Below are positions 2,405-39,183 of a stretch of DNA of 64,000 nucleotides, one piece after another. The stretch covers positions 321,899 to 385,898 of the forward strand of contig JBGSQF010000013.1 of the NCBI GenBank assembly GCA_041738235.1. The letters run 5' to 3'. Numbering within the stretch: position 1 is the first letter of the stretch; each line of letters begins with the position of its first letter. Under the pieces are notes generated by a model. The model did not search any database. It saw only the letters and a program-made list of their open reading frames with translations, and was not told the DNA's origin. The stretch is from Minisyncoccia bacterium. GTDB taxonomy: Bacteria > Patescibacteriota > Minisyncoccia > Moranbacterales > GCA-2747515. Position numbers and translations under genes: made by a program.

Positions 2405-2479
2405 GCCGCGTTCGTCTAGCCCGGTCAGGACGCCAGGTTCTCATCCTGGAAATCATGGGTTCGAATCCCATACGCGGTA
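2405..2479 (+). tRNA. tRNA-Glu (anticodon CUC)
   Basis: Cloverleaf read by eye: acceptor GCCGCGU/ACGCGGU (one G-U pair), D-arm GUCU/GGAC, anticodon stem CCAGG/CCUGG with loop UUCUCAU, T-arm AUGGG-UUCGAAU-CCCAU, discriminator A. CCA not encoded. Strongly resembles bacterial tRNA-Glu. Confidence 0.7.
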
Positions 2480-2491
2480 CAAATAGCAACC

Positions 2492-2526
2492 AAAAAAGAT
2501 GGTCTTAATGGCCATCTTTTTTTGTT
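2492..2526 (+). terminator. rho-independent terminator downstream of tRNA-Glu
   Basis: 8-bp stem AAAGATGG/CCATCTTT followed by a T-run of 7 or more. Confidence 0.5.
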
Positions 2527-2535
2527 TTTGTGTAG

Positions 2536-2672
2536 CCACGTATGGGATGAGAAGGGTATTTCAAAAAGGCAAACTGCTTTGCGTTTTTGAAAACCCGGGC
2601 TTTGGAGGAGAAAGCAAGGCATGTGCCAAAGGGCACGACTTGCGACGGAGGAAAAGGAATCCCATACGCGGT
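2536..2672 (+). repeat. ~137-nt structured direct repeat, copy 1 (attL-like; carries an 18-nt identical copy of the tRNA-Glu 3' end)
   Basis: About 90% identical to 6319-6456. Ends pair as a 10-bp stem CGTATGGGAT/ATCCCATACG. Internal hairpins GGCATGTGCC and GCAAG...CTTGC. The 3' end AATCCCATACGCGGTACA is identical to tRNA positions 2464-2481. Confidence 0.7.
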
Positions 2673-2678
2673 ACACTT

Positions 2679-2708
2679 AAAAAATGCCTTTTCAAAAGGC
2701 ATTTTTTT
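2679..2708. terminator. bidirectional rho-independent terminator
   Basis: A-run, palindrome ATGCCTT-TTCAA-AAGGCAT, then T7. Could terminate + transcription through repeat copy 1 and/or the minus-strand gene ending at 2888. Confidence 0.5.
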
Positions 2709-2710
2709 CT

Positions 2711-2738
2711 TACCTGTGTATGAGATTCGAACCTGATT
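2711..2738 (-). other. decayed inverted copy of the tRNA-Glu 3' half (att-site remnant)
   Basis: Minus-strand reading AATCAGGTTCGAATCTCATACACAGGTA aligns with tRNA AATCATGGGTTCGAATCCCATACGCGGTA, with a 2-nt deletion and 4 substitutions. Confidence 0.4.
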
Positions 2739-2887
2739 GTCGACACAATAACTCACTACCCACTCACTCACCGTATCTCTCCCCTTCTTTTTTCCAATAA
2801 AAAACCGACTCTTCCTTAAGTCGGCTGGGATGTCTCCCATTCGTGGCCATCTTTGGTCTTTGATTGCTCTCATCTTCTCTACTTTCC

Positions 2888-4537
2888 TCAATAGCAGAGA
2901 TAGTTGTCGTTCCAGGTATGCGGATCGGAAGGCTCCAGCCATTGCACACACCGCTTCCCTCCAATTGGTCCGGCACTGGACCAGGAGAAGTTAAGCGGAC
3001 TGCTCGGTGGCACGCAGAGGTAGTTGTCGTTCCAAGTATGCGGGTCAGCGCTTTCTCTAATCTGCGTACAGCGCATCCCTCCGATCGATCCGGCGCTGTT
3101 CCAACGCATCCCGTAGTCCTGGGTTGCGCAGAAGTAGTTATCCATCCAGGTATGCGGGTCAGCTCCTTCCGAGATCTGCGTGCAGTAGGCCCCGGAAACG
3201 GGTCCGGCATAGGACCAGACAAAAGTGCCGTCGGGACTTGTGGGGAAGTTAGTTACCGTGAACCCCATCGTCTGGGCATTATTGCCTTCGTTAGACTCAT
3301 GCAGGTTTCCCTGGTAGTCGGCGTAACATTGATAGGTGCGAGTTCCTGTGTCTCCCAGTCGGAAGCTATTGCTTATGTACTCCATCTTTTTTGCTCCGAC
3401 TCGCATGTCGCCTGCATCGACACCGTCATCTCCACGGCGGTTTCCTTGATTGATTTGGTAGTCAATGCGGAAACCGTTTGGGGCGTCACGGTTACCCACG
3501 TTTTGCACCTCGCAATACGGGTTGACGTAAGAATCCTTTCGAATGAATCCTCCCTGTCGAATAACCCAACCGTTTACCTTGAGGTACAGGTCGGAAACGA
3601 TGAGGTCGGCCTTCCAAGGCACGACATGGTAGGTGGCGCTTTTGCAGTTGTTGGCTTCGTTTAGCTCCGGAAGCCAGCCTTTGGAGTCCACGCAACAGGT
3701 GTACGTGCGATCTCCGGTGTTGCCCAGCTTCCAGCTGTCCCAGACCACTTCCGTGGCAATTTCACCCACTCTCGATTCTCCGGGGTCAAGGAAGTCCTCG
3801 TCACGCTCACTGCCATCCATACGGTGCGATACCTTGACTTGCAGAGGCGAGTCGATCTCGCCCAGATTGGTCATCTCGCAGTACGGATGCCAATAGTTAT
3901 CCTCCAATAATGTGGCGCCGTTGTAGTAGCGAGCACCCGTTATGGCATCAGAGAAATAGACGTCGGTGACGGTGAGGTCGGGACGCAGGCTTGTGACCTC
4001 GTACCGTTCCACACGGCTCTTGTTGTCACCCTCGTCATACTCTTCGACTTCGTTCCTGAAGTCGATCTCGGTGCGGAAGGCGATTGAGGAGATACCATCG
4101 GGGATGATGTAATCCTTCGTCTCCGTGATCGTCTCGCCTTCGTCGAGCTTGGCGATGGTGATGTAGCCCGTTTGCCATTGGACCCATTCTCCATCGTCGA
4201 TTGACACGAGATACTTGATGTCGATGGTGTCGGCATTGTCCCTCGTCTTCCAATTCCCCGCGTCGCCTCCCACAGCCTTCACCGCGACGCGGTTTCTGGC
4301 TTTCATACCGGGAAGGAATTGATCGTGTCCGGCGTAGAGCTCGTTGCCGTCGACACCGAGGATATCGGTGTCGTTTTTGAGGTTGACGGGGTCGAGGGGT
4401 TGAGGGTCGGTGGGATCAGATGTTGATCCGCCCGCTCCCGAGGTTGTAACAGTGATAGTAACTCCCTCGCAATCGGAAGCGAATGCCTCCGGAAGCAGAA
4501 GGAATAATGCAGTGACGAACAGTATGCCATATCTCAT
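2888..4537 (-). CDS. secreted repeat protein (549 aa) with CARDB-like segments and three C-terminal ~45-aa Cys repeats (C..DPHTW.DNY.C)
   Basis: ATG at 4537 with SD GGAGGAAAT upstream. Signal peptide MRYGILFVTALFLLLPEAFA. Three C-terminal ~130-nt tandem coding repeats. Elevated GC (~55%). The longer ORF start at 4663 overlaps the upstream gene and lacks an RBS. Confidence 0.7.
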   Translation of the reverse strand: MRYGILFVTALFLLLPEAFASDCEGVTITVTTSGAGGSTSDPTDPQPLDPVNLKNDTDILGVDGNELYAGHDQFLPGMKARNRVAVKAVGGDAGNWKTRDNADTIDIKYLVSIDDGEWVQWQTGYITIAKLDEGETITETKDYIIPDGISSIAFRTEIDFRNEVEEYDEGDNKSRVERYEVTSLRPDLTVTDVYFSDAITGARYYNGATLLEDNYWHPYCEMTNLGEIDSPLQVKVSHRMDGSERDEDFLDPGESRVGEIATEVVWDSWKLGNTGDRTYTCCVDSKGWLPELNEANNCKSATYHVVPWKADLIVSDLYLKVNGWVIRQGGFIRKDSYVNPYCEVQNVGNRDAPNGFRIDYQINQGNRRGDDGVDAGDMRVGAKKMEYISNSFRLGDTGTRTYQCYADYQGNLHESNEGNNAQTMGFTVTNFPTSPDGTFVWSYAGPVSGAYCTQISEGADPHTWMDNYFCATQDYGMRWNSAGSIGGMRCTQIRESADPHTWNDNYLCVPPSSPLNFSWSSAGPIGGKRCVQWLEPSDPHTWNDNYLCY

Positions 4538-4580
4538 GGCCGGATTTCCTCCGTTTTTGGGTTGATTGGTTGACATGTGA

Positions 4581-5300
4581 TCACTTGATGCACATGTCAC
4601 CTTTACCGAAGAGTGCATCATAGCTGACATCGTCCGGGTAATGCACCTGGAAGATGTCCGCACACACAGGCCAGGCGTACGTTCTCACGATCTGTCGGTT
4701 GCTGTCGAGTCCGTACCAGGCTTGTGCTTTGATGCACGAGGTGTCGAAGGGGTACCAGGCGTAGTTACCGACCTTGCGGACGGTGAACTGGTTGCCGGGG
4801 ATGGTGGCGGGGTCTTTCTCGTAGATGAACCCACGGAGGGTCCAACTGCCCTTAACATCAGATCCAAGATCCGTATTACGGTGATAAGTGTTACCGCTTC
4901 CTGGGTAGTAAGTGGCGTGATTAATGCCATCCTCAAACCCCTGGCTCTTATACCAATCCATCTCCAAAACATCGAAAGATCCGTCGGTGTATGCCTCCTC
5001 GACGTAAGCGACATGGCCTTCGAACTCCGCGATTGCGCCATCTTTCGGCTCGAACCCGACCATGAAGTCCAGGTTCCGAAGCTTATCGGACCACTGTCCG
5101 CCGTTCCATCCACTTCCGGTTATCGCCGAGGCGATGTCCGGGCGTTTGTATGCGGCCCACCAGGTGCAGTTTCCATGGTCACCACACTCGAAATGGCTCG
5201 TCGTGGACGTATATCCATAACACACCGAGTCACCAGCCAGCGCATTCACTCCGAAGAAAAACACGCAGACGCCAATCAGCCGAGCAAGTAAATTGCTCAT
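4581..5300 (-). CDS. secreted CHAP-domain peptidoglycan hydrolase/amidase
   Basis: Signal peptide. CHAP signature with Cys in GNCTWWAAY and downstream His in GHVAYVE. GC about 55%. Confidence 0.7.
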   Translation of the reverse strand: MSNLLARLIGVCVFFFGVNALAGDSVCYGYTSTTSHFECGDHGNCTWWAAYKRPDIASAITGSGWNGGQWSDKLRNLDFMVGFEPKDGAIAEFEGHVAYVEEAYTDGSFDVLEMDWYKSQGFEDGINHATYYPGSGNTYHRNTDLGSDVKGSWTLRGFIYEKDPATIPGNQFTVRKVGNYAWYPFDTSCIKAQAWYGLDSNRQIVRTYAWPVCADIFQVHYPDDVSYDALFGKGDMCIK

Positions 5301-15573: not shown

Positions 15574-15742
15574 TCGTCAACACGAGTTATCCACCGCTCT
15601 CCACGATGACTCTCAAATACCCCTATCTCCTCAAATGATCGCCGATCCAAGCCCTTGATGGCCGGTATTTTCTCCCTAAAGACCTTCTACCCAATAAAAA
15701 AACCACCTTTCGGCGTTCATATCCTTTCTGAAATTACTTCAC

Positions 15743-15794
15743 CGCCCGCACAAGTTCTCTTCTTCACGATGTGAAGCTAAGAATTGTGCGGGCG
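15743..15794. promoter_or_regulatory. long GC-rich inverted repeat (15-bp stem, 21-nt loop) immediately 3' of the GC-rich gene
   Basis: CGCCCGCACAAGTTCT ... AGAATTGTGCGGGCG, with a nested mini-palindrome TTCACGATGTGAA in the loop. Confidence 0.4.
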
Positions 15795-15801
15795 ACAGCC
15801 C

Positions 15802-16239
15802 CTACGCGCATACTCCGGTGCACTCAGGGTGTGGTTGTGGGTTCGGCGGTGGGTTCGGAACCTCCTGCCCCGAGTCCGCCGACCACACCCGAGGCGGTGA
15901 GATACGATTGCGCCACCACGGGTCGGTGGCTTCTCGTTCGTCGTCCTCCTCCTCGAGAGGGGGTGGGGTAACCCCGCGTTCAATCGGGGGATGCATCAAC
16001 GCCTCCCCGTCAGGAGCTGGTAGCGTCTCCGCTGGTGGCTCCACCGCCAGCTCCTCGTCCGTCAGCCCCAGGTTCCCGTACTCGTCCGTGACGGGATCCG
16101 CACTTGCCAGCGACGTCCATGTCGCCAACAAAACGAGTAGGATTAGGATGGTGACGGCCGTCACCCACCCCCACCCCTTCTGAGAACGTGGTATCTCATC
16201 GTTCGGGTCCCACACTTCCACTTTGTTATCCTCCAGCAA
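15802..16239 (-). CDS. GC-rich (~62%) Pro/Glu-rich membrane-anchored hypothetical protein
   Basis: 145-aa ORF with an N-terminal TM (VTAVTILILLVLLATW) and a Pro-rich tail. Strong compositional contrast with its ~40% GC flanks. Confidence 0.5.
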   Translation of the reverse strand: MLEDNKVEVWDPNDEIPRSQKGWGWVTAVTILILLVLLATWTSLASADPVTDEYGNLGLTDEELAVEPPAETLPAPDGEALMHPPIERGVTPPPLEEEDDEREATDPWWRNRISPPRVWSADSGQEVPNPPPNPQPHPECTGVCA

Positions 16240-16379
16240 ATTTTTGGGGAATTTGAAAAAAGCACCCTCCTATCCCCAGGTTGAAAGGTACTGTCTCCAA
16301 TATTAGCACATATTGTATATTTTGTCAATAGCTAAGATGGGGATCCTCGCACCCCAAAAAACCGCAAGAGAGATCTCTT

Positions 16380-26827: not shown

Positions 26828-29800
26828 ATGCAAGAAAAAGATCTCACCTCATCATCCAAATACTTTTCTCAACTTTCCTTCGATCCAAAACTCCGAAAAG
26901 GTTTTTTCCATTTCTTTGTATCACGTCCACGTATCGTGATCCTAATGATCATTCTTCTCACGGGCTGGGGATCCTACGCTTATCTGACACTCCCGAGAGA
27001 ATCCAGTCCAGAGGTAAAAATCCCTGTAGCGATCGTATCTGTAGTTTTCCCTGGAGCCTCTCCAAATGATGTAGAGGAACTCGTGACCAAGAAAGTTGAA
27101 ACGGAACTCTCCTCTCTCAAGGGGGTCGACAAAATTCAGTCCTCTTCTTCCAACTCCCTCTCCATAACCACGGTCAATTTTAGTGCGAGTGAAAATCTCG
27201 AAAATGCCATTCGCAGTGTTCGTGATTCCGTCGATAACATCAGATCAAAACTTCCCGACCAAGCAAATGACCCGGTCGTTTCAGAAGTGTCCTTCAGCGA
27301 TCAACCGATCCTTACCCTTTCTCTTACTGGACCCTATGATGGTACGACACTCTATACCTATGCCGAAACGCTCAAAAAAGAACTCGAGAAAGTTTCCGGG
27401 GTCCGCGAAGTGATCCTTTCAGGAGGTGAGCAAACGGAATTTTCCATAAATTACATTCCTGAAAAGATCTCTTTTTACGGTATCTCACCCGCGGTAGCCA
27501 ATCAGGCAGTCACTGCTCGAAATACCTCCATTCCGGGAGGAAATTATGATGGACAATCCTTTTCCTATCCAATACGTTCCGATGCCCGATTCTTCGACGC
27601 CAAGGCACTCGGCGAAACACCCATTCTCACTACTAAAGATGGTGCCGTAGTACTCCTACGGGACATCGCCACCATTTCTGAAAGTCCGATCCCTCGTACG
27701 ACCGCTTCACGATTTTCCTTAAATGGTTCAGTACCCGAAAATGCTGTTACGCTCGATATCAAAAAGAAGACTGGAGGATCGGTACTGGATATTGTAGAAA
27801 ACGCAAAAAAAAGAGCAACAGAACTTACTCCCTCCTTTGGCGAAGGTATCAAGATCGAGACCACCGTGGATTTCTCAGAACAGATCCGTGAAGACTTTGA
27901 TCAACTAGGGAAAGACTTTGCCATTACCGTTCTTTTGGTGGTGGGTACGCTCTTCCTTATAGTGGGTCTCAAAGAAGCCTTCATCGCGGGACTAGCAATA
28001 CCCATGGTGTTCTTCTCGACCTTTGGGGTCATGATGGCCACGGGTACATCACTCAACTTTCTTTCTCTCTTTTCACTCATCCTATCCCTTGGGCTTCTAG
28101 TAGACGACGCTATCGTAGTAGTGTCGGCCACCAAGCAATATCTGCGAAGCGGAAAATTCACTCCTGAAGAGGCGATCCTTTTGGTCCTCCGTGACTTCAA
28201 GATCGTACTCCTTACCACCACACTCGCCACTACGTTCGCCTTCCTTCCTCTTCTCTTGGCAAGTGGAATCATCGGAGAATTCATCAAATCGATCCCTATC
28301 ACCGTTTCTGTGACCCTCATCTCTTCACTGATCATAGCGCTCATTATCAATAACCCCCTTGCGGCCGCATTGGAACGAATACGTTTCACGAGAGCTTTCC
28401 TCTGGATAACGATCGCTATACTTATTCTCTTCTCCTGGACCTCTCTTGCATGGATCCCTGGCATCGCCGGATATTTCGGAGCCTCACTGGCGCTGGCTGG
28501 CATCGTGTCCCTGCTTTTTTTCCGATTCTCCAAAAAAGGAGAGTCTACACTCAACACCAACGAGCGTCTACTTCAAGAGGAACGCCGAAGTGACGAGCTC
28601 ATAAAGAAGCGTCTTCAGACTAGCACTATTGATCATCCTGACTTCTTTCATCGACTCCTCCATGGCATCGTCGGATTTGAAAGAATTATCCCGGTCTACG
28701 GTCGAGCTCTCAACTACGTTCTCGCCTCCAAAAAACATCGGGTTATAACACTGATCGCGACAGTGCTTCTTTTTCTTGCTACGCTTACCCTTCCTGTTCT
28801 CGGCATCGTCAAAACGGAGTTTTTTCCTTCAACGGACAGTAACCTGCTCTTCATCAATGTCACCGCATCATCAGGACTCAAGCTTGACGAAACAGACAGG
28901 CTCACTATGCGTGTTGAAGAAAAACTTCGCAACTACAAAGAGATAGAAAGTTTCTCTACCATTGTAGGACGCGCCGGAATATCCACCAATGGTCCGGGAG
29001 GCTCTGCCGGAGATTCATCAAATCTTGCCGGGATCACCGTTCGGCTGGTAGATAAAAAGGATCGCACGACTCCTTCGTACGACCTTGCCACAAAGATCCG
29101 TAATGACCTCGCAACGATAAACGATGCTGATATCACCGTCGAAGCGGAGCAAGGTGGCCCTCCTGCCGGTGCCGCCTTTGAAGCGCGTATCACCGGAGAT
29201 GACCTCCGCGTTCTCTCCGCGACGGCCGATGATCTTAAAAAGATCCTCGAAACGATCCCCGGTGTCGTAGGGGCCGATATTTCCCTCAAGGAAGCCCCTG
29301 CAGAATACACGTTCACGCTCGATCCCGATCGAGTAGCCCTTTATGGACTCGACGCTACTTCGGTCGGATCCACATTGCGCATGGCCATTTCCGGCGTAGA
29401 GATCTCAACAGTCCTCCGAGACAACAAAGAATATTCCGTTGTCGCACGATTTGATAAACAATATATTTCCACACTTGAATCAGTTCAAAATCTTGAAATA
29501 ATAAATAGAAATGGGACCCCCGTATTTCTCAAGGACGTTGCCAAGATCGAGCTCAAGCCCTCGGTAAATTCCATCGCGCGTACCGATGAACAGCGCGTTG
29601 TCACATTGGCCGCCGGTGTTGAAGGAAAAACCAACCCACAAGATATTCTCAAAGCCTTCCAGGAAAAGGTTGCGAAAGAGTATACCCTCCCCGAAGGGTA
29701 CAGCATCGGCTATGGTGGTCAAAACGAGGAAAATGCCAAGTCGGTGCAATCGATCCTCCAGGCGATGATAATTGCTGCGGCACTTATCATTACCGTACTT

Positions 29801-30235
29801 GTCATCCAATTCAACTCTTTCCGGAAGGCAGTACTTGTGCTTGTCACATTACCTCTTGCGCTCATTGGGGTATTCATCGGGCTCGCGCTATTTCAGATCC
29901 CGCTCTCCTTCCCCGGACTCATCGGGATCCTGGCGCTTTTTGGTATCGTCGTAAAAAATGCCATCATCTTGGTTGATAAAATAAATCTCAATCTTAAAAC
30001 GGGCATTCCTTTTGCCGAGTCAGTGCTTGATGCCGGAAAATCTCGTATCGAAGCGATCGTCATCACCTCGCTCTGTACCATCCTCGGCATCCTCCCCGTC
30101 ACGCTCAGCAATGACACCTGGCGAGCACTAGGCAGTGCCGTCATCTTCGGTCTGGTCTTTTCTTCTTTCCTCACACTCTTTATTATCCCCACACTCTACT
30201 TCGTCATCGCTCGGAAAGAAGAACGGGAAAAATAA
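26828..30235 (+). CDS. efflux RND transporter permease (AcrB/HAE family, 1135 aa)
   Basis: Twelve TM helices with two large periplasmic loops. The conserved TM4/TM10 regions are typical of ACR_tran proteins. Confidence 0.85.
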   Translation: MQEKDLTSSSKYFSQLSFDPKLRKGFFHFFVSRPRIVILMIILLTGWGSYAYLTLPRESSPEVKIPVAIVSVVFPGASPNDVEELVTKKVETELSSLKGVDKIQSSSSNSLSITTVNFSASENLENAIRSVRDSVDNIRSKLPDQANDPVVSEVSFSDQPILTLSLTGPYDGTTLYTYAETLKKELEKVSGVREVILSGGEQTEFSINYIPEKISFYGISPAVANQAVTARNTSIPGGNYDGQSFSYPIRSDARFFDAKALGETPILTTKDGAVVLLRDIATISESPIPRTTASRFSLNGSVPENAVTLDIKKKTGGSVLDIVENAKKRATELTPSFGEGIKIETTVDFSEQIREDFDQLGKDFAITVLLVVGTLFLIVGLKEAFIAGLAIPMVFFSTFGVMMATGTSLNFLSLFSLILSLGLLVDDAIVVVSATKQYLRSGKFTPEEAILLVLRDFKIVLLTTTLATTFAFLPLLLASGIIGEFIKSIPITVSVTLISSLIIALIINNPLAAALERIRFTRAFLWITIAILILFSWTSLAWIPGIAGYFGASLALAGIVSLLFFRFSKKGESTLNTNERLLQEERRSDELIKKRLQTSTIDHPDFFHRLLHGIVGFERIIPVYGRALNYVLASKKHRVITLIATVLLFLATLTLPVLGIVKTEFFPSTDSNLLFINVTASSGLKLDETDRLTMRVEEKLRNYKEIESFSTIVGRAGISTNGPGGSAGDSSNLAGITVRLVDKKDRTTPSYDLATKIRNDLATINDADITVEAEQGGPPAGAAFEARITGDDLRVLSATADDLKKILETIPGVVGADISLKEAPAEYTFTLDPDRVALYGLDATSVGSTLRMAISGVEISTVLRDNKEYSVVARFDKQYISTLESVQNLEIINRNGTPVFLKDVAKIELKPSVNSIARTDEQRVVTLAAGVEGKTNPQDILKAFQEKVAKEYTLPEGYSIGYGGQNEENAKSVQSILQAMIIAAALIITVLVIQFNSFRKAVLVLVTLPLALIGVFIGLALFQIPLSFPGLIGILALFGIVVKNAIILVDKINLNLKTGIPFAESVLDAGKSRIEAIVITSLCTILGILPVTLSNDTWRALGSAVIFGLVFSSFLTLFIIPTLYFVIARKEEREK

Positions 30236-30258
30236 AAATTTTCCATTTTTCCATTTTT

Positions 30259-30290
30259 AAAGGGGTCCCGTTGTGGTCCCTTTTCCTTTT
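30259..30290. terminator. possible terminator between convergent genes
   Basis: AAAGGG-(13 nt)-CCCTTTTCCTTTT. Weak stem. Confidence 0.3.
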
Positions 30291-30412
30291 GTCCGAGTGG
30301 ATGTTCCTGTCTCACTTTCCCTACCAGGCTCTAGGGGTCGTTGCCCCCTCTATGTCAATATATCACAAAACACCTCTTGTGAGCCGTTTTATTCACACAC
30401 AAACTTATAGGA

Positions 30413-30733
30413 TCACAGGCCCTCCCCCTTCAAAGCGCCCTCCATCTTCTTCCCTTCCGCGTCCACCGTTCCCTGCACATCTTCAGCAGCTTCCTTGGCA
30501 GAGTTTAGCTGCTCCAGACGTGTCTTGGGAACCGATCCATCAGGACCCGCGGGAAGCAAATTCTGCACCTCAGTTCCCACACCCTTTTCTTCCGAAGAAA
30601 GGTAGATCTTTACAAATAACATCACAATGATCGCCGTTGCCAAAAGAAGCACGAGAAGTCCAATAAAACCTTTTTTATTTTTATGCATAGTATTGAGCTT
30701 AGCTGTTTTACACAAACCAAACGTACACCCCAT
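30413..30733 (-). CDS. small membrane-anchored hypothetical protein
   Basis: Probable start at the internal Met (MHKNKKGFIGLLVLLLATAIIV). Single TM and a low-complexity tail. Confidence 0.35.
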   Translation of the reverse strand: MGCTFGLCKTAKLNTMHKNKKGFIGLLVLLLATAIIVMLFVKIYLSSEEKGVGTEVQNLLPAGPDGSVPKTRLEQLNSAKEAAEDVQGTVDAEGKKMEGALKGEGL

Positions 30734-30992
30734 AGAGAAGTGCTATGTTTTGTACGATCAACATTGGAATACCCAGTACAAAGTACCACTTGCGCGTTTT
30801 GTGTCGGAACACCCACATCCCCGCATACACTCCCACGCTCCCAAACATCGTCGCCAAGAAAAACAGCATTCCTTCCGAGATCCGTTCCGCACCCTCCTTT
30901 TTTGATCGCATTTTATCCCACAAAATAACCAAGAATGCACCCACATTCACAACTGCAAAAAAGTATATGAAGATACGGGAAATATTCTCCAT
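30708..30992 (-). CDS. DUF1294-family small membrane protein
   Basis: 94 aa, WDK..SKK...RISE...FRHKTRK motif typical of DUF1294. Confidence 0.55.
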   Translation of the reverse strand: MENISRIFIYFFAVVNVGAFLVILWDKMRSKKEGAERISEGMLFFLATMFGSVGVYAGMWVFRHKTRKWYFVLGIPMLIVQNIALLYGVYVWFV

Positions 30993-31010
30993 ATTGATCC
31001 TCGTAAAGGT

Positions 31011-31547
31011 TTATATGACTTCTTCTCGTTGAGATCTCTCCCACTCCTCTATTCGCTTACTCGCCCTCTCCATATAATGTGCAAATACCGATCCCTCCCG
31101 GGACACCCCCTCCACCTCTACTGTTTCATGCATAAATTCTATCTGCAAAACATCCTGCATAATAGGCAAGATATCATCCCGATCGGCAACAACGCTTTGT
31201 CGCGCAAAGAATTCAACACGTGGGGAGTCAGGCATATTTCTATTGGTCATAAACTTTTTTTTAGACTCTTCTTCCCATTCTTCCCGTAGTGATCCTGTAA
31301 GATCAAATGACTGGTCTTTCATGATCTTTCCCTTTTCTTCTGCCAAATGAGCGAGAACTTTGTTGAGTTTGGGGTAAATTCCGGATTCAAGAAACGATGC
31401 GTATATTCTTCTCATTCTTACGACTCTCTGATCCTGTGAGGAACGAAAAATATTTTCCATAGAATGCCTCCACTCCTTAACCCTTCTCATATCTTCTCCT
31501 ACAAACTTTCCTTGCATATCCATCTCCGGAAAATATTCTGCCTTCAT
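31011..31547 (-). CDS. hypothetical protein (178 aa)
   Basis: ORF with no recognisable motif. Confidence 0.45.
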   Translation of the reverse strand: MKAEYFPEMDMQGKFVGEDMRRVKEWRHSMENIFRSSQDQRVVRMRRIYASFLESGIYPKLNKVLAHLAEEKGKIMKDQSFDLTGSLREEWEEESKKKFMTNRNMPDSPRVEFFARQSVVADRDDILPIMQDVLQIEFMHETVEVEGVSREGSVFAHYMERASKRIEEWERSQREEVI

Positions 31548-31678
31548 AGAGTACTCTTTAAATGTTATACCCTCATATTACACGAAAAATAATTAATCCC
31601 AAAATCCTTCTTGTTATCCCCATCTACGTTCTTCCGTTTGTCAGACACCGTTTCCCCTGCTACAATATCCTTACAAAT

Positions 31679-33442
31679 ATGAAAGAGTTTTCCCTTTCGA
31701 ACAATATTTTTCTCTTCTTCTCTGGATGGGGATTTTTAGGTGTTCTCTTGGCATGGACAGGAAAATTTAACGCTTTCTGGTTTATCGCTTATACCATCGT
31801 CTTTTGTATGATCACCCTTCTTGTCGCTTGGCGATCCAGACACAAGGTTTCAGATGCTAGACCTTCTTCTCTCCTCTCACGACTCTCCCACTACCTCTTC
31901 CCCGCACTTCTTGCATGTCTTCTTGCTTCCTTTTTTCAACCCACAACCTACTTCTCCGGACGCGATGAGGGATCTATCTTTCAAGCTTCCTTTGAACTAG
32001 AGCAAACACGCTCCCTGGCATTTTCTTCCCCAGAGTCCCGTGCGTTCTTTGATATCTATCATAAAGGCCGGGCTCTCAATTATCCCGGATTTTACTACAC
32101 TGAAAATGGATCACTGACCACACAATTTCCTATTGCGTACATCGCATGGCTCGCCTCATTCCTCTCCCTCTTTGGGCTGACCGGACTTATGGTCGCCAAT
32201 GGCACGCTCTTATTCCTCTTCTTTCTTGCGGTCACACATATCATCCAAACATTTGCTCCGAAAAAATGGGGTGTGATCGGGATGATCCTTCTCGCCACCT
32301 CCTTCCCAATATTTTGGTTTTCGCGATTTACGCTCAGCGAGAATTTTGCCCTTGCTTTCCTTTGGATATTTATTTGGAGCATCTACGCTTTCGCTCACAG
32401 CCCGGATCGAAAAAAATTATTTCTTCTATTGCTTACTGGAACACTTCTGCTTTTTGGACGCATAGAAGGGATCGCCTTTCTAGGAATGGCTGCTCTTTTT
32501 CTGTTCTACAAAAAAAATACACGAGTTTTTCTCACAAAAAGTATTTGGATCCATATTATTCTTCCGCTCATCCTATTTGCTCTCTTGGCTTTCATATCAT
32601 TTTCCGTGAACACGCCCTTCTACATCACCATCGTCAAAGGGTTTTTGGAAGGATCCTCAGAGGCGCTGAGCAATGCCCCATCAATTCTCTCTACGTTCAT
32701 TGACCGAATAAGCATTCTGTTCCTCTATGGGATCGGGCTTTCTCTACTCCTTGGAAGTGTCGGTTTCTACTTTCTCGTGAAAGAAAGATCCAAAGAAAAC
32801 GCTCTTACCGCTACCCTTTGGATAGTGCTCCCTTCATTCTTATATCTGTTTATATCTTTTATATCTCCCGACCATCCTTGGATGCTACGTAGATTTATGT
32901 TCTCGATCGTGCCGACCTTCCTGCTCTTTTCCATATTCCTTTGTGTCAAAGCAGAATCACCACGACACCGATTCCGAGGGTACGCATTCGCATTCGTACT
33001 GCTCATCGCGCAACTCAGCTCTCTCCTTTATTTCTTTCCCATTTCACAAGGAGATGACCTTCTCAGGTCGACCAAAAATATAGCGGCTTCCTTGCCAGAG
33101 AACGACCTCGTACTCGTGGACCAACTGGCTAGCGGAGATGGATTTCATATGCTGTCAGGTCCGCTCCAAACCCTCCTCAGTCGTCATGCCCTTTATTTTA
33201 TGAACCCCTATGACCTCGATCGTCTCGATCTCTCGGATTTTTCTACTGTCTCCCTCCTCGTTCCCGAAGGTCGTGAGGATATCTATGCACCCATACTGGC
33301 TGAACACGGTGCACGAAGAATGAATACCTTTCCGATATCCTTTTCCACACTCGAAAGCACCTCACTTTCTTCCCACCAATTCCCCAAAAAAATTCATATC
33401 GAGCAAAATGTTATTCTCTATCGATGGGAAGCATCAGAGTAG
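31679..33442 (+). CDS. polytopic membrane protein, putative GT-C-fold glycosyltransferase (ArnT/PMT-like)
   Basis: ATG at 31679 precedes the first TM. About 12 TM helices with a large C-terminal soluble domain. Architecture resembles 4-amino-arabinose/mannosyl transferases. No residue-level confirmation. Confidence 0.5.
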   Translation: MKEFSLSNNIFLFFSGWGFLGVLLAWTGKFNAFWFIAYTIVFCMITLLVAWRSRHKVSDARPSSLLSRLSHYLFPALLACLLASFFQPTTYFSGRDEGSIFQASFELEQTRSLAFSSPESRAFFDIYHKGRALNYPGFYYTENGSLTTQFPIAYIAWLASFLSLFGLTGLMVANGTLLFLFFLAVTHIIQTFAPKKWGVIGMILLATSFPIFWFSRFTLSENFALAFLWIFIWSIYAFAHSPDRKKLFLLLLTGTLLLFGRIEGIAFLGMAALFLFYKKNTRVFLTKSIWIHIILPLILFALLAFISFSVNTPFYITIVKGFLEGSSEALSNAPSILSTFIDRISILFLYGIGLSLLLGSVGFYFLVKERSKENALTATLWIVLPSFLYLFISFISPDHPWMLRRFMFSIVPTFLLFSIFLCVKAESPRHRFRGYAFAFVLLIAQLSSLLYFFPISQGDDLLRSTKNIAASLPENDLVLVDQLASGDGFHMLSGPLQTLLSRHALYFMNPYDLDRLDLSDFSTVSLLVPEGREDIYAPILAEHGARRMNTFPISFSTLESTSLSSHQFPKKIHIEQNVILYRWEASE

Positions 33443-33492
33443 AAGAATATTCCGCTCAACAAATCACAATTTCTTTAAATGATCTTAAAAAG

Positions 33493-33518
33493 AACGGCCC
33501 TATAAAGCCGTTTTTTTT
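33493..33518 (+). terminator. rho-independent terminator of the GT-C gene
   Basis: AACGGC-CCTATAAA-GCCGTT followed by T8. Confidence 0.55.
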
Positions 33519-33527
33519 GTTTAATTA

Positions 33528-33556
33528 TTGACACTTATCAATAATAATGCTATAAT
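33528..33556 (+). promoter_or_regulatory. consensus sigma70-type promoter (TTGACA-17-TATAAT) driving the GC-rich small gene
   Basis: Perfect -35 (33528-33533) and -10 (33551-33556) with a 17-nt spacer. Followed by a ~120-nt GC-rich structured leader (hairpin TGGAGGA-ACCC-TCCTCCA) and SD AAAGGAG before the ATG at 33680. Confidence 0.55.
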
Positions 33557-33679
33557 ATACGGTTAATTTTCGTTCCTTAAAATGGCGTGAAACTTCTCGC
33601 GAGCATGGTGTGGAGGAACCCTCCTCCACGACTCACTCGCGGGAAACCCCCGCAATCCACATACAGAAAAGGAGCAGAA

Positions 33680-34060
33680 ATGAAGCCCGAGCGAGTTCTA
33701 GCTTTCGGAATATCAGTCATGGTGGCATTGGCCATTTGGCTCTGGGTCGAAGGGCGGGAGGAGGTGCGGGTGCGGGAGATCACTCACGCTCTCCAGCACC
33801 TCAACCGCGGAGACGCGGTCATCTTCCGCGACGGACGTCACGGGGAGGTTGTCCAAGGAAGGGAGTCTCCGCCAGTGGGGATCAGCACCCTGGACGGCGA
33901 GATGACCCTCCCGATCGTCATCATGGAGATCTATGGTCCAGGTGACGGGAAATGGGAGGGGCGGATGACGTACGCCGTCCACCGCGTCGGGGCGATCGCC
34001 CCAGACATCGAGAGGGTCGAGCTGAAGGGAGTTCCGGACCCCCGACCCACCACCCCATAG
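33680..34060 (+). CDS. GC-rich (~63%) small membrane-anchored hypothetical protein (126 aa)
   Basis: ATG with SD AAAGGAG. N-terminal TM (VLAFGISVMVALAIWLW). The ORF track start further upstream lies in the leader. Confidence 0.55.
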   Translation: MKPERVLAFGISVMVALAIWLWVEGREEVRVREITHALQHLNRGDAVIFRDGRHGEVVQGRESPPVGISTLDGEMTLPIVIMEIYGPGDGKWEGRMTYAVHRVGAIAPDIERVELKGVPDPRPTTP

Positions 34061-34092
34061 ATTCGTTTGCCGACGCGTTGGCGAACAAAAAC

Positions 34093-34130
34093 CCCGCTAC
34101 AAAAGATATGTAGCGGGTGTTTTCTTTTTA
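34093..34130. terminator. bidirectional rho-independent terminator
   Basis: Perfect 9-bp stem CCCGCTACA/TGTAGCGGG, then a T-rich run. Sits between convergent genes. Confidence 0.55.
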
Positions 34131-34154
34131 TAGCATTCTTTTTCAAAAGATATT

Positions 34155-35294
34155 TTATTGATCATTTCGTATCCATTCCATCGTCTCTCTTGCACATTTG
34201 TCCCACGAGAATTTTTTGAGCTGCGATCGACCCTTTTCTCTGCATTTCTCTTGAAGTTCTTTGTCCCCCAACACTTGTTGTAGTTTTTCTGTAAGATCGC
34301 CTAGCGAATTTGCATCAAAATACACCGCACCCTCCCCTCCCACTTCTGGAAGACTTGAATTGTTGGCACATATCACCGGAACATCCTGCGCAAACGCTTC
34401 CAAAACAGGCAAACCAAAACCTTCATACAAAGAAGGAAACACGAACACAGAAGCATGTTTATACAGCATTTCTCTTTCTCCGAAGGAAACCAAACCGGGC
34501 AAAACAATGTCTTTAAAGTATTCTGAGCTTCCCGCCGTTTTGATAACATTTTCCCAAAGCCATGCCTTCTCTCCTACGAGCATAAGTTTTAGATCCGAAG
34601 ATCGAGAGTCTTTCTTGAGTCTTTCAAATGCGTGAATGAGCATCTCAAGGTTTTTTCTTGGCTGAATGGCTCCCACATATAATATATATCGAGTATTTGG
34701 TATATCCAGAGCGATCTTCTTACTCGTCATCTGTTCCCTGTTCCCTCCTTCTCGTCCCTCGTTGCTCATGATTTGTTTCTCATATCCATGGTATACCACT
34801 CGTATCTTTTGTTCAGAAATATCCGGATAATACAAAAGAACGTCACGCTTGGTAGACTCCGAAACGGCAATTATACGATCGCTCTTTTTAATTGCTTGAT
34901 CGGTAAGCATTGTAAGGCGCCGGAGGTCACCCTTAGGAAAATGCTCGGGAAATTTGCGAAATGCCAAGTCATGGATCGTCACTATCGTTTCCATCTTCTG
35001 TGGCCGACTCAGCGGAATAGCCTGCATCGGCATCCAGAGTCGATCCGGTCGCGTCTTCCAAAGCTCGAGTGCGAATCGTGTCTGCGTCCAGAAAAAAGGA
35101 AATGGGATAGACCGCACTCTATATTTTGAAAAGTCTTTTGGTTCAAGCAGAGGGTTAAATGTCCCGCGATGATAGATTGAAAACATATCCTGAGGTGCAA
35201 CCTTTCCAAAGCGATTAAGGAGCTCGAGAATATATACGCGTGTTCCATCGATCCGCTTTCCGTCAAGGTCCGCTGCTTGAATGGCGATTTGCAT
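34155..35294 (-). CDS. glycosyltransferase family 4 (GT-B, Glycos_transf_1)
   Basis: C-terminal motif VFVFPSLYEGFGLPVLEAFAQDVPVI and the E-X7-E region typical of GT4 enzymes. Confidence 0.8.
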   Translation of the reverse strand: MQIAIQAADLDGKRIDGTRVYILELLNRFGKVAPQDMFSIYHRGTFNPLLEPKDFSKYRVRSIPFPFFWTQTRFALELWKTRPDRLWMPMQAIPLSRPQKMETIVTIHDLAFRKFPEHFPKGDLRRLTMLTDQAIKKSDRIIAVSESTKRDVLLYYPDISEQKIRVVYHGYEKQIMSNEGREGGNREQMTSKKIALDIPNTRYILYVGAIQPRKNLEMLIHAFERLKKDSRSSDLKLMLVGEKAWLWENVIKTAGSSEYFKDIVLPGLVSFGEREMLYKHASVFVFPSLYEGFGLPVLEAFAQDVPVICANNSSLPEVGGEGAVYFDANSLGDLTEKLQQVLGDKELQEKCREKGRSQLKKFSWDKCARETMEWIRNDQ

Positions 35295-35306
35295 AAATAG
35301 GTATTA

Positions 35307-35759
35307 TTATTCCCAACTCACATTATGTTCTCGCAAAAATATTCTCGAACAGAGTGAGCCTTCTTTCGCCGATCTTTGTAGGTCGCTAAAATCGTCTGTC
35401 CATTTTTGTTCAACATACTGTGTCACACCTTCAAACGCTTGGGGTACAACTGGTTCACCGGCAATGATCTCAACCTCATAATCTCGAAGGATCAGAATAT
35501 ACTCTCCTCTATCAGCGGTGTCTTCACCAAGCATGTTCACTATTCGTACATCTACGCCCAATTTGATCCTTGCTGCGCGCGCAACAGTATCTTCCCACAA
35601 CTCCTGAGGATCCTTCTTTGAGGCCGCTGGAAACCCCCAGTGACCCGCTACGTCCGCATCATCATCTGGACGCCTCACAATAAGAAATTTTGATCTCTCT
35701 GCATTATAGACGACAAGCGCTACAGAAACTGTAACTGGTTTTTCACTATTCATATTCAC
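35307..35759 (-). CDS. Nudix-like hydrolase (divergent)
   Basis: VALVVYN...LIVRR..GHWGFPAA...ELWEDTVARAARIKLG loosely matches the Nudix fold and box. Low confidence. Confidence 0.4.
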   Translation of the reverse strand: MNMNSEKPVTVSVALVVYNAERSKFLIVRRPDDDADVAGHWGFPAASKKDPQELWEDTVARAARIKLGVDVRIVNMLGEDTADRGEYILILRDYEVEIIAGEPVVPQAFEGVTQYVEQKWTDDFSDLQRSAKEGSLCSRIFLREHNVSWE

Positions 35760-35772
35760 GCATTATAACTCA

Positions 35773-36924
35773 TTAGTTGATACTGTGCTCCAATAACTTT
35801 TTCGCGTCCTTACAACTCTTTGTTTCCATGAGTTGTATCCTAAGTTCCTTTGCCCCAGAGAATCCTCGAACATATGACGCATAGTGCTTCTTTAAGATAT
35901 CATAGTTCTTGGTTTCTCCCCAGGTAATATCAAAAAAAACGATAAGCGCTATAAGCGCACGCAGGCGATTGTCGGAATCAGCCTTGAACATTTGACTATC
36001 GGTGTTTAACACAACTTTCTTTTCCACTCTCCCTATATCAGCTTTACTTAGCATCGACTCGAAACGTTTTTGTTCGGATGAGATACGAGGCACGAATGAG
36101 GAGCGAAGTAAGCCGTACTGTTGTACGGCGTCAAGCACCGAAGCTCGCAACAAAGCAGATCGCCGAACAGGAACGTTTCGAGTAAACACCCAAGGATTTC
36201 CGAAAATACCTCGACCGATCATGATCCCGTCACAGCCCGTTTCTTTGACGCGCCGTTCTCCCTCCTCACGATTTGTTACATCCCCATTCCCTATGATCAC
36301 TGTTCCTGTACCTCGTGCCATTTCTACAATCTTTGGCATCTCCTCCCAATGCGCCAAAACTTTGGACATTTCTTTGCGAGTTCGAAGATGTACGATAAGC
36401 GCCGCCGGTCTTTCTTTCAATAATTCCCCGATCCAAGCCTCTGTTTCGATCATATTGTATCCAATGCGCGTCTTGACCGCTACCGGAATATCCCCCGCGC
36501 CTTCCTTGAGCGCCCGAATAATAGCTCGTGCTCGAGCAGGGTCCTGTATAAGTGCCGCTCCTGCTCCCTGTTTCTCAACCTTTTTATCTGGGCATCCCAT
36601 GTTGACATCGATCCCATCAAATCCTAGTTCGCGCACGAACTGCGCGCACCACAAAAAATCCTCTGGGTCGCTTCCGAACACCTGTGCCACGATCGGTCGC
36701 TGTGTCTCGGTATAAAAAAGATCTCGAACAAGTGCTTTTCGTCCGAGATCTGAGAGGAGTCCTTTGCAGGCAACAAATTCTGTGTATAGAACATCCGGTT
36801 TACCTGTACGCGCGATAAACTCACGGAATGCCACGTCCGTCACATCTGCCATAGGCGCCAAAACAAAGAACGGTTTCGGTAAATCATTCCAAAAATTTTT
36901 CATCTTACAACCCTTATCTTTCAA
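35773..36924 (-). CDS. dus: tRNA-dihydrouridine synthase
   Basis: FVLAPMADVTDVAFR N-terminal motif, TIM-barrel FMN-binding pattern, C-terminal helical domain. Confidence 0.8.
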   Translation of the reverse strand: MKDKGCKMKNFWNDLPKPFFVLAPMADVTDVAFREFIARTGKPDVLYTEFVACKGLLSDLGRKALVRDLFYTETQRPIVAQVFGSDPEDFLWCAQFVRELGFDGIDVNMGCPDKKVEKQGAGAALIQDPARARAIIRALKEGAGDIPVAVKTRIGYNMIETEAWIGELLKERPAALIVHLRTRKEMSKVLAHWEEMPKIVEMARGTGTVIIGNGDVTNREEGERRVKETGCDGIMIGRGIFGNPWVFTRNVPVRRSALLRASVLDAVQQYGLLRSSFVPRISSEQKRFESMLSKADIGRVEKKVVLNTDSQMFKADSDNRLRALIALIVFFDITWGETKNYDILKKHYASYVRGFSGAKELRIQLMETKSCKDAKKLLEHSIN

Positions 36925-38061
36925 TTATGCTGCTTCTCGGAAGGAATCTTCCTCTAAGGAATTCTCTTCTAAGGAATCATCTTGCTGCTTCTCCAAATGA
37001 GCAATTCTCTGAAGAACAACCTCTACTGTCTCACTTTGATTAAGTGATTCCCGAAAAGAAGGACTGTTCTCAGCGAGTTTGAAAATGCTTTCCTTTTCCT
37101 CTTCCGAAATCGTTGAAAACCTTTTATCTCGAAGAGTTTTCCATCTGTCCCCATCTCCTTCTGTAAGAGACTGCGCAAGTTTGGATGCTTTACCGAGAGG
37201 CCACTCCATCTGCGATGGTGGGACTAACCGAGAAATTCGCTCGACCCAATTCGCCAATGTCTCGTTTTGATGTTCCATTGCAAAGAGATCCTTGGCAACA
37301 GGTGCTCGTTTTACGAGATCGATGGATGTCTGCACAATACGATCCTGATATTGTTTATACTCTTCATTCGAGAAAATATCTTGGTAAAACAAAGATTCCA
37401 TCTTTCCGTATTGAGAAATATCATCAAAAAAAGTGCTTGCGATGATACTATTTTGAAACCGATCCAACTCTTTCGATCTTCTCTCTTTTGTTTCAGTAAT
37501 GCCCCTCTCTGAAGTTGTCTGTTGCTCAATGTTCATTTCTCCCGTCTCTTCCGTCGCAACCGAAGGCATCTCTCCTCCTTCAACACTACCTTCTCGTTTT
37601 TTTCTCAGCACTCTACTAACCCTCGATATCCAAGCAAGCATGATCTCCCCTTCTCGAATCGACAAGTCTCTTCCCGTATACTCTCCACCAGAGGAAAGAG
37701 CCTCAAGAGACCGCTGCGTGATCGCCTGGACCCTACTTTCTAGCCCAGGATCTTGTTCCTTAGCATGCTCAAATGTGAGGTTGCTTATCTCACGCCAGAA
37801 GTCTTGATCGTTTCCGGAAACCTCGAGCATAAGGGAGAGCACCTCACCAGATTCATTCCCTTCAATGTCTATGATACGTCCCTGTTCATCCGTCTTTACC
37901 TGAGCTTTTGGATCAATAATCAGTCGCTCCCTCCCTCCGAAAAAGAAGGCACCAACGCGAGAACTTTTAACACGTTCCCACAAGCTCTTAGTTGTTTTCC
38001 CACTCAACTCTCTCCCAGCAATTTTTTTGGCGGGATCATTTGATGTCATCCTTTCGAACAT
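36925..38061 (-). CDS. hypothetical protein (378 aa)
   Basis: ORF with a 1-nt gap to dus, so probably co-transcribed. No motif recognised. Confidence 0.45.
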   Translation of the reverse strand: MFERMTSNDPAKKIAGRELSGKTTKSLWERVKSSRVGAFFFGGRERLIIDPKAQVKTDEQGRIIDIEGNESGEVLSLMLEVSGNDQDFWREISNLTFEHAKEQDPGLESRVQAITQRSLEALSSGGEYTGRDLSIREGEIMLAWISRVSRVLRKKREGSVEGGEMPSVATEETGEMNIEQQTTSERGITETKERRSKELDRFQNSIIASTFFDDISQYGKMESLFYQDIFSNEEYKQYQDRIVQTSIDLVKRAPVAKDLFAMEHQNETLANWVERISRLVPPSQMEWPLGKASKLAQSLTEGDGDRWKTLRDKRFSTISEEEKESIFKLAENSPSFRESLNQSETVEVVLQRIAHLEKQQDDSLEENSLEEDSFREAA

Positions 38062-38178
38062 AGGATTTCTCGTTTATTATTTAGTATATAACTTCCTCCT
38101 CTAGGATACACTATTTTTGAACATCTCACAATACAATTACAATTGCATGCTGAGTCAAAAGATGCTACCATTTTATAT

Positions 38179-38628
38179 ATGAAAACGATCGCCTTCAACA
38201 AACGAGCTTCTTATGATTACTTCCTCCACTCACATACCGAGGCAGGAGTGGTTTTAAGTGGACAAGAAGTACGATCTATAAAAACTGGGCATATCAGCCT
38301 CAAGGGAAGCTTTGTGACCGTAAAAGGATCGGAGCTCTACCTTACGAACGCCAATATCCCTCCCTATATTCACGCCGGGGAGATCAAGAACTATGACCCC
38401 ACTCGTCCACGAAAACTCCTTCTCAAAAAGAACGAGATCGCCTCTTTTATAGGGAAAAGCAAGGCTGAAGGCATGACCCTTATCCCCACTCGAGTATATG
38501 TCAAAAAAGGGAAAGTAAAGGTGGAGATTGCCACCGCTACAGGAAAGAAAAAGTACGACAAACGCGATACCATTGCCAAGCGAGAATCCAAGAGAAGGAT
38601 CGAACGCACCCTTCGTACCAATTCTTGA
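38179..38628 (+). CDS. smpB: SsrA-binding protein SmpB
   Basis: MKTIAFNKRASYDY...GKVKVEIATATGKKKYDKRD...RTLR, a classic SmpB. ATG at 38179 chosen. Confidence 0.85.
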   Translation: MKTIAFNKRASYDYFLHSHTEAGVVLSGQEVRSIKTGHISLKGSFVTVKGSELYLTNANIPPYIHAGEIKNYDPTRPRKLLLKKNEIASFIGKSKAEGMTLIPTRVYVKKGKVKVEIATATGKKKYDKRDTIAKRESKRRIERTLRTNS

Positions 38629-38653
38629 CAAGAAGTGTTTTTTGCCGTATTAT
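38625..38653 (+). promoter_or_regulatory. candidate ssrA promoter (TTGACA-17-TATTAT)
   Basis: -35 overlaps the smpB stop codon. About 95 nt upstream of the mature tmRNA 5' end. Confidence 0.4.
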
Positions 38654-38749
38654 TAGCCCCAGATTGGAAAAGTCGTTTTTCCTTATTTTCCTTTTTACAA
38701 AGACCTAGATCGTCGCATTCGCTATTTTTTCTCAGAAAAAGTCTCGAAT

Positions 38750-39183
38750 GGGGTTGTTTAGATTCGACAGGTTGTTATTTGACATAAGTAAGCAAGCCGG
38801 TTCACGCGCGGTAACACCGAAACCTTCTCCGCGCACTCGATAAGTGCAAACTTCATCACAAAAGCCAAAGACGCTATTGCGCGAGCATTTAGCACCTCTT
38901 TCGCTACCGCCCTGGCTTAATTGCCGAGGCCATCGAATTTCGTGACTCCTTATAACGAATGTTCGGTGTCATATGTATAAGGATAGTCCTCTTCCCCCTT
39001 CTCGAAGGAAGAAGGACGAAACCTCCGAGACCGCCTTAGATGTACTTTGTTTGTTTCTGGGCATCTTCGGTTGGTTCAGGTGAAGGGAAGTAATGCGCCT
39101 TTTATCTGTCAAACAAACTCTGCTTGAAGAAAGCTTTGTCATATCATCTCTGGACATGGGTGCAATTCCCATCAACTCCACCA
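38750..39183 (+). ncRNA. ssrA: tmRNA (ssrA), ~434 nt
   Basis: 5' GGGGTTGTTTAGATTCGACAGG matches the tmRNA consensus GGGGCUGAUUCUGGAUUCGACGGG. 3' GGACATGGGTGCAATTCCCATCAACTCCACCA matches the T-arm plus acceptor and encoded CCA. Acceptor pairs GGGGUUG/CAACUCC. In-frame tag ORF ends ...FATALA-TAA (stop 38918-38920). Lies just downstream of smpB. Confidence 0.8.

Follow-up and report, generated by a model that had tools for sequence, protein, structure and literature searches.

The GC-rich unit and its surroundings

The locus described here lies in a 64,000-nt stretch of DNA, analysed over its full length and referred to below as the window, and consists of a small GC-rich open reading frame (orf126) with its own promoter, leader and terminator, placed between the gene of a 626-aa multi-pass protein and a convergent glycosyltransferase gene. 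Its features are the following:

33486..33519, plus strand: intrinsic terminator of the upstream 626-aa gene (13-pair stem, then a T-run)
33528..33556, plus strand: sigma-70-type promoter TTGACA-17-TATAAT with a TGn (TGc) extended -10, predicted from its match to the consensus
33534..33555, no strand assigned: left arm of an imperfect inverted repeat, complementary to 34128-34149 at 18/22 positions
33563..33679, plus strand: predicted 5' UTR of ~117 nt, its start placed from the position of the -10
33572..33578, plus strand: anti-SD stretch GUUCCUU, predicted to pair with the Shine-Dalgarno sequence (SD; unpaired probability 0.00-0.23)
33594..33645, plus strand: core leader hairpin predicted by folding, with the middle helix CUUCUCGCGA/UCGCGGGAA around the apical GUGGAGGA-ACCC-UCCUCCAC
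33669..33675, plus strand: SD AAAGGAG, ~4-5 nt upstream of ATG 33680
33680..34060, plus strand: 126-aa ORF (orf126), with 63% GC, codon periodicity and a transmembrane helix
34065..34086, plus strand: small GC-rich 3' hairpin GUUUGCCGA-CGCG-UUGGCGAAC (dG -11.2, z -2.3)
34093..34127, no strand assigned: bidirectional intrinsic terminator, stem 34093-34117 plus T-run (dG -18.4, z -6.2)
34128..34149, no strand assigned: right arm of the imperfect inverted repeat, pairing with 33534-33555
34155-35294, minus strand: convergent GT4 glycosyltransferase gene (Pfam 3e-29)

The preliminary description of this DNA had pointed to a perfect consensus promoter as a rarity in the window, and our scan confirmed that TTGACA (33528-33533) and TATAAT (33551-33556), separated by a 17-nt spacer, make up the sole 12/12 match in the 64 kb, the chance rate being a mean of 0.01 such matches per window in dinucleotide shuffles. 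Judged from the consensus and the extended -10, this promoter should drive strong transcription of the unit. The claim that the gene is bracketed by strong terminators was also borne out by the intrinsic terminators at 33486-33519 and 34093-34117; the upstream one is readable as a minus-strand terminator too (33512-33493), and the downstream one is common to the orf126 unit and the convergent GT4 gene. The hairpin at 34065-34086, directly past the stop codon, is not followed by a U-run. Both the promoter and the terminators have an AT-rich composition like that of native sequence, and for this reason the promoter may not have come with the GC-rich insert.

The 18/22 complementarity of the inverted-repeat arms, both AT-rich, was equalled in 1 of 500 shuffles, and the left arm shares positions with the spacer of the promoter and with the extended -10. 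No direct repeat indicative of a target-site duplication abuts the arms, and neither paralogues of the cassette nor repeats or further copies of an element were found elsewhere in the 64-kb window; because both a target-site duplication and a second copy were missing, the unit was not called a MITE- or IS-like mobile element. An integron cassette and a type I toxin were set aside more informally, given the own promoter of the unit, the 126-aa protein and the lack of any visible attC-like site or integrase. As a separate observation, the minus strand of the right arm contains TGCTATAAA, which could be an extended -10 directed towards the terminator.

The placement between two glycosyltransferase genes, as originally proposed, holds clearly for the downstream GT4 gene and much less so for the upstream 626-aa protein, which is only a putative GT-C-like enzyme, its match to the NCBIfam LA_3751/3752 family (E 1e-12) being far below the cut-off. 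Beyond GT4 there follow genes for NUDIX, Dus, SmpB and tmRNA, nothing in this neighbourhood being phage-like. The tmRNA gene (38750-39183) is found directly after smpB (38143-38628) with an 11/12 promoter ahead of it at 38625-38653; it is 434 nt long, carries insertions relative to the Rfam model and specifies the tag peptide ANFITKAKDAIARAFSTSFATALA.

Coding sequence, composition and the sister cassette

A Shine-Dalgarno sequence followed by a 126-aa, 63% GC, membrane-anchored ORF had been described from the first reading, and all these elements were recovered in our analysis, the hydrophobic segment being an uncharged helix at residues 6-23. The start codon has been called in three ways, at 33605 (151 aa, NCBI), at 33680 and at 33719 (113 aa, Logan), and we would prefer ATG 33680 because of the SD and its spacing. 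The GC contents at the three codon positions are 0.69/0.44/0.76, a codon periodicity with a chi-square p=1.5e-7, and this order (GC3>GC1>GC2) is the pattern of genes from GC-rich genomes. AlphaFold single-sequence models of the full-length protein and of its soluble part alone were both of low confidence (pLDDT ~47-48, the soluble part on its own being no better); the full-length model (pLDDT 47.5) shows a helix at residues 3-23, a second helix and five strands, and a Foldseek search of the PDB with it gave no match at E<=0.001. The product would be a single-pass membrane-anchored protein with a C-terminal, ~100-residue beta-rich domain that is weakly predicted to face outward.

Searches for relatives of this protein covered several collections. 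The word-indexed search over 5.8 billion protein clusters recovered the orf126 self match only; exhaustive phmmer over 1.84 billion representatives added one spurious repeat protein (P0002); viral contigs, phages and plasmids gave no match by DNA or protein, and PHROGs, PADLOC and NCBIfam held nothing for it. The remaining five reading frames of the region did not match Pfam. An antisense frame in register with orf126 (33713-34092, minus strand) stays open for 126 codons with no Pfam match, as is expected in GC-rich coding DNA, and could mislead gene callers; the concatenated antisense-frame query was swamped by 8000 low-complexity candidates.

The only lead to a function is a weak, sub-threshold match to YajC (PF02699), and orf126 could be placed in no assignable family. 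The match reaches 17.6 bits (E 0.0036) against a gathering threshold of 28.2 bits, persists at 15.2 bits (E 0.019) after removal of the transmembrane helix and has the pattern L..L.RGD.V....G.HGEV. It would be compatible with a very divergent YajC- or NfeD-like membrane-anchored small beta-barrel acting as an accessory of a translocon or membrane complex, as would the predicted succession of a transmembrane helix, a second helix and five strands and the fact that YbbJ is the best PDB sequence match (E 0.25). Like YajC, orf126 is small, starts with an N-terminal transmembrane helix and has a GD-x-V...G-x-x-G-x-V-like motif past it; its C-terminal part is longer, however, the exhaustive phmmer search did not retrieve any member of the YajC family, the Foldseek search was equally silent, and the 64-kb window contains no secD, secF or tgt, the neighbours of orf126 being glycosyltransferases, NUDIX and Dus. 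We regard this relationship as unlikely.

In composition, orf126 departs from its surroundings, with 63% GC versus 44.7% in the window and ~44-45% in its flanks, and a GC3 of 0.76 versus a median of 0.44 (sd 0.07) over 65 non-overlapping window ORFs (0.43-0.47 in the flanks), i.e. ~4.5 sd above the window distribution. Four of the 65 ORFs are GC3 outliers: orf126 itself (0.72-0.76), a minus-strand ORF at 15802-16239 (0.71), a CARDB protein gene (0.65) and a CHAP protein gene (0.67), all of them coding for proteins that start with a hydrophobic signal or anchor. The three others are located as follows:

2888-4663, minus strand: 591-aa CARDB-repeat protein gene, GC-rich, with C-terminal 'DPHTWNDNYLC' repeats
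4581-5300, minus strand: CHAP-domain protein gene, GC-rich, with an SD
15802-16239, minus strand (unit 15700-16328): sister ORF orf145, GC 0.63, 139-145 aa, Pro/Glu-rich

The CARDB and CHAP genes form a GC-rich pair (~0.55; GC3 0.65-0.67) encoding secreted proteins at 2405-5300 on the minus strand, beside tRNA-Glu (2405-2480), which looks like a tRNA-adjacent acquired island.

The translation signals deviate as well. A survey of 38 well-defined window genes found a 4-nt SD core ahead of the annotated start in 4, versus a background of 8.5%, and a 5-nt SD ahead of any in-frame start within the first 25 codons in 3; the upstream regions of these native genes are A/T-rich, and they are essentially devoid of Shine-Dalgarno sequences. 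An SD is present in front of orf126 (AAGGAG-5-ATG), orf145 (GGAGGA-7-GTG) and the CHAP gene (GAGGA-8-ATG). Since composition and translation signals both deviate, they point to an SD-using, GC-rich source for orf126.

The orf145 unit shares with that of orf126 the whole layout of promoter, structured leader, SD, 62-63% GC ORF, 3' hairpin and terminator, with no sequence similarity between the two in either proteins or leaders. Its promoter is TTGACA-17-TAATAT with a TGn (16328-16300, minus strand), its product has an N-terminal hydrophobic segment ending in ASA, and the unit closes with a long 3' hairpin (z -5.2) and then a terminator. Unlike that of orf126, the orf145 leader hairpin is followed by U6 and looks like a terminator, and orf145 has an orthologue in a relative. 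This orthologue, 62% GC over its length, is carried by a Logan contig (L129, sample ERR14790927) whose DNA is 81% identical, and it occupies the corresponding position there, flanked by the genes for the M50 peptidase and MraZ; its amino acid identity is 61% by BLASTP (69% over aligned codons). The dN/dS of orf145 is 0.20 at a dS of 1.2 (neighbour genes, dN/dS 0.01-0.10 at dS 0.9-1.05), and while its coding sequence has accumulated many substitutions and indels, hardly any change is seen in its 5' leader and 3' hairpin. A unit of this type can thus be a real, vertically inherited and fast-evolving protein gene with constrained UTR structures. Exact SmpB and NUDIX look-ups and 90%-identity cluster look-ups for the ERR14790927 relative, the nearest one known, returned the self contig only, and no orf126 homologue from that sample was present in the protein collections searched; the conservation of orf145 would support orf126 as a protein gene by analogy only.

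We also considered that the orf126 transcript might be a structured non-coding RNA and the ORF a mere by-product of high GC, a reading that could draw on the orphan status of the protein, its poor structure models, the several frames open across the GC-rich block and the folding of the whole transcript (z -5.2). Hairpins in the UTRs and the terminator account for most of the latter excess, because the coding sequence alone is only mildly structured (z -2.1) and its reverse complement similarly so (z -2.6). The strong GC periodicity in precisely the SD-linked frame, the clean transmembrane helix after the SD and ATG, the lack of an Rfam match and the protein-level purifying selection on the analogous sister cassette all stand against a non-coding transcript, which we consider improbable.

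The structured leader

The leader, presumed to start near 33563, runs for ~117 nt up to ATG 33680, and its structure agrees with the earlier description, including the nested hairpin in which the apical GUGGAGGA-ACCC-UCCUCCAC is enclosed by CUUCUCGCGA/UCGCGGGAA. The whole leader folds as one three-tier stem-loop (dG -43.3 kcal/mol, z -4.1) in which the core hairpin at 33594-33645 (dG -31.2 kcal/mol, z -6.05) is followed by GGGAAACCCC... and not by a U-run; the fold is a single unbranched rod without any multi-helix junction or pocket-like internal loops, no more than a few nucleotides separate its stable stem from the presumed 5' end, and the leader sequence does not display three-base periodicity. 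The SD (33670-33675) is predicted to lie in the closing helix together with 33572-33578, with an unpaired probability of 0.00-0.12, and its sequestration as an expression platform is seen in silico only.

The suggestion that this leader could be a riboswitch or an attenuator found no backing. Rfam searches (Rfam 15) of the whole window at the gathering threshold and of 33450-34160 at E<=10 retrieved nothing relevant, with no match to 33557-33679 at either level and merely terminator-like noise around 33450-33600; no terminator-like site was called inside 33557-33679; a covariance model built on the leader had no match besides the leader itself when run over the window plus 33 related loci, 388 kb altogether; and a scan of viral sequences for the apical hairpin yielded generic terminator hairpins only. 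The leader belongs to none of the known families of riboswitches or leaders, and terminator-based attenuation by it is excluded. It is nevertheless worth weighing whether a ligand- or signal-responsive cis-regulatory RNA of another kind (riboswitch, thermometer, attenuator) controls the small gene. The stability of the leader well beyond that of shuffles, the predicted pairing of the SD (probability ~0.9-1.0), an alternative hairpin GCGGG-AAAC(C)-CCCGC that competes with the middle helix, and the nearly 100% conservation of the UTR hairpins in the sister cassette in spite of its diverging coding sequence would all be in keeping with such a role; the failed Rfam searches, the missing intrinsic terminator, the unbranched rod with neither junction nor pocket-like loops and the absence of the motif from the rest of the window and the 33 related loci make it unlikely.

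Judged from the predicted fold, the most economical role for the leader would plausibly be occlusion of the SD and/or stabilisation of the mRNA 5' end, the relevance of SD occlusion being uncertain where the genes of the genome otherwise make no use of SDs. The leader and 3' hairpins may equally be baggage of the intergenic regions of a donor.

Origin of the unit and its resemblance to known systems

The relatives of the window GT4 are nearly all MAGs of Candidatus Moraniibacteriota (Patescibacteria/CPR), at 46-56% identity, and genome and metagenome scans did not detect any relative with a GT4 above 56%. The organism itself is a Candidatus Moraniibacteriota (CPR) bacterium, and the window sequence is also present on a 407,907-bp NCBI contig. 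In ~25 Moranbacteria loci the gene order is conserved: a 626-aa gene is followed by a 335-444-aa gene and a 130-141-aa gene, which face GT4. The slot occupied in the window by orf126 holds in these loci a single-pass and a multi-pass protein gene, respectively, neither of them annotated (L002, L003, L005-L009, L014, L049-L053, L055-L059, L061, L064, L065 and L067), and one sub-clade has an extra ABC-F ATPase gene in the same slot. No orf126 homologue was encountered in the syntenic loci, so that the comparison between the glycosyltransferase genes uncovered two different genes in relatives and in none of them the same gene at ordinary GC; GC-rich islands are rare across 322 kb of related loci. 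Since the window GT4 nests within the diversity of the syntenic Moranbacteria loci, loss of the gene pair is the derived state. Both genes flanking orf126 have intact ends, and tblastn with the two slot genes of the relatives left no trace anywhere in the 64-kb window. By this synteny, the event at the slot was the replacement of two genes rather than a simple insertion.

Some of the contigs compared (L005, CAZMNQ010000004.1; L015; L021; L023) are labelled as Bdellovibrionales or Gammaproteobacteria; L005 has Moranbacteria-type synteny (GT4, a ~334-aa gene and a GT-C-like gene) despite its label, which suggests mis-binning or mislabelling of these MAG contigs.

The position of orf126, exactly that of the gene pair in relatives, could be taken to mean that the gene is native, either arisen de novo or left as a fast-diverged remnant of the two slot genes, and the AT-rich, native-like promoter and terminators would fit such an origin, to which a large survey has often ascribed orphan genes (PMC11293555). 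Yet its GC1 and GC3 alike greatly exceed those of native genes, whereas orphans of that sort tend to match or undercut the GC of their genome (PMC11293555), the canonical SD is not a native feature of this genome and the tblastn searches recovered no remains of the former pair. A native origin appears to us very unlikely. Even less credible is that the GC-rich segment is an assembly chimera derived from a co-occurring GC-rich organism. The change in composition is abrupt, and the sole other assembly with the segment stems from sample SRR28170474 and possibly from the same reads; this independently assembled Logan contig (9,496 bp) is 100% identical to window positions 29685-39180, including both junctions, the segment is coherently framed by promoter, SD and terminators, and a second cassette of the same type is found at a conserved site in a different organism from a different sample, all of which argues against a chimera.

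We thus favour, as the probable though by no means settled reading, a horizontally acquired, lineage-specific orphan gene in a stand-alone monocistronic unit that encodes a small membrane-anchored protein. The impression of an inserted, self-contained cassette recorded in the preliminary description has held up, in the light of the foreign GC3, the SD in an SD-poor genome, the want of homologues and the ~25 loci with other genes in its place. The horizontal origin is inferred from composition and synteny alone, neither a donor nor a homologue having been found. Under this favoured reading, a foreign GC-rich fragment of ~0.5 kb (roughly 33594-34086), comprising the leader hairpin, the SD, the ORF and the 3' hairpin, would have taken the slot between the GT-C-like gene and the convergent GT4, replacing two membrane-protein genes. 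The unit would be transcribed strongly from the consensus sigma-70 promoter with its extended -10; the leader rod, by pairing the SD with the 5' anti-SD, might throttle or condition translation and/or protect the 5' end of the mRNA; the product would be a 126-aa single-pass membrane-anchored protein, and the transcript would end at the bidirectional terminator common with GT4.

If this is right, the locus offers a clean, datable case of genes replaced through horizontal transfer in a CPR bacterium with a streamlined genome, in which a small exported protein of foreign origin, with foreign-style translation signals, would have come under a consensus promoter inside a conserved envelope-glycosylation locus. 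The locus opens no long-standing question. In CPR episymbionts, the proteins most readily suspected of host interaction are those of the surface, which makes it reasonable to study the expression and localisation of orf126. The GC-rich, SD-bearing units (orf126, orf145 and the CARDB/CHAP pair) all encode predicted exported proteins, and it is tempting to speculate that they are acquired genes forming a class of their own with surface or effector functions, that their strongly structured UTRs act as cis-regulatory RNAs of a new type and that the orf126 leader gates translation by SD occlusion on cue, for instance upon host contact; we hold this to be quite unlikely.

As in known 5' UTR stems that sequester the SD, the SD of the orf126 leader is predicted to pair with an upstream anti-SD; there is no evidence of a ligand, temperature or protein trigger for this leader, however, and the native genes of the window organism appear not to use SDs at all. 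In its architecture the unit recalls phage morons, autonomous add-on units in prophages that have their own promoter, their own terminator and a deviant composition (PMC3594210). Three of the four defining features are present (own promoter, own terminator and deviant GC), and, like a moron, the unit is a single small gene inserted between neighbours that in relatives lie side by side or have something else between them. It is not located in a prophage, though, but in a housekeeping region of the chromosome, its neighbours being the GT-C-like, GT4, NUDIX, Dus, SmpB and tmRNA genes; phage and viral collections and PHROGs contain no homologues of orf126, and it replaces two genes rather than merely adding DNA. 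By this comparison, the orf126 unit is built like a moron without being one.

In other respects the gene resembles the species-specific orphan genes of prokaryotes, which are likewise short, lacking in homologues and poor in structure prediction, and whose GC tracks that of the genome, being lower for de novo or phage-derived orphans (PMC11293555). Against this background of orphans usually at or below genome GC (PMC11293555), orf126 differs in its GC3, ~4.5 sd above that of the window, and is unusual among them in being equipped with expression signals foreign to the genome in which it resides.
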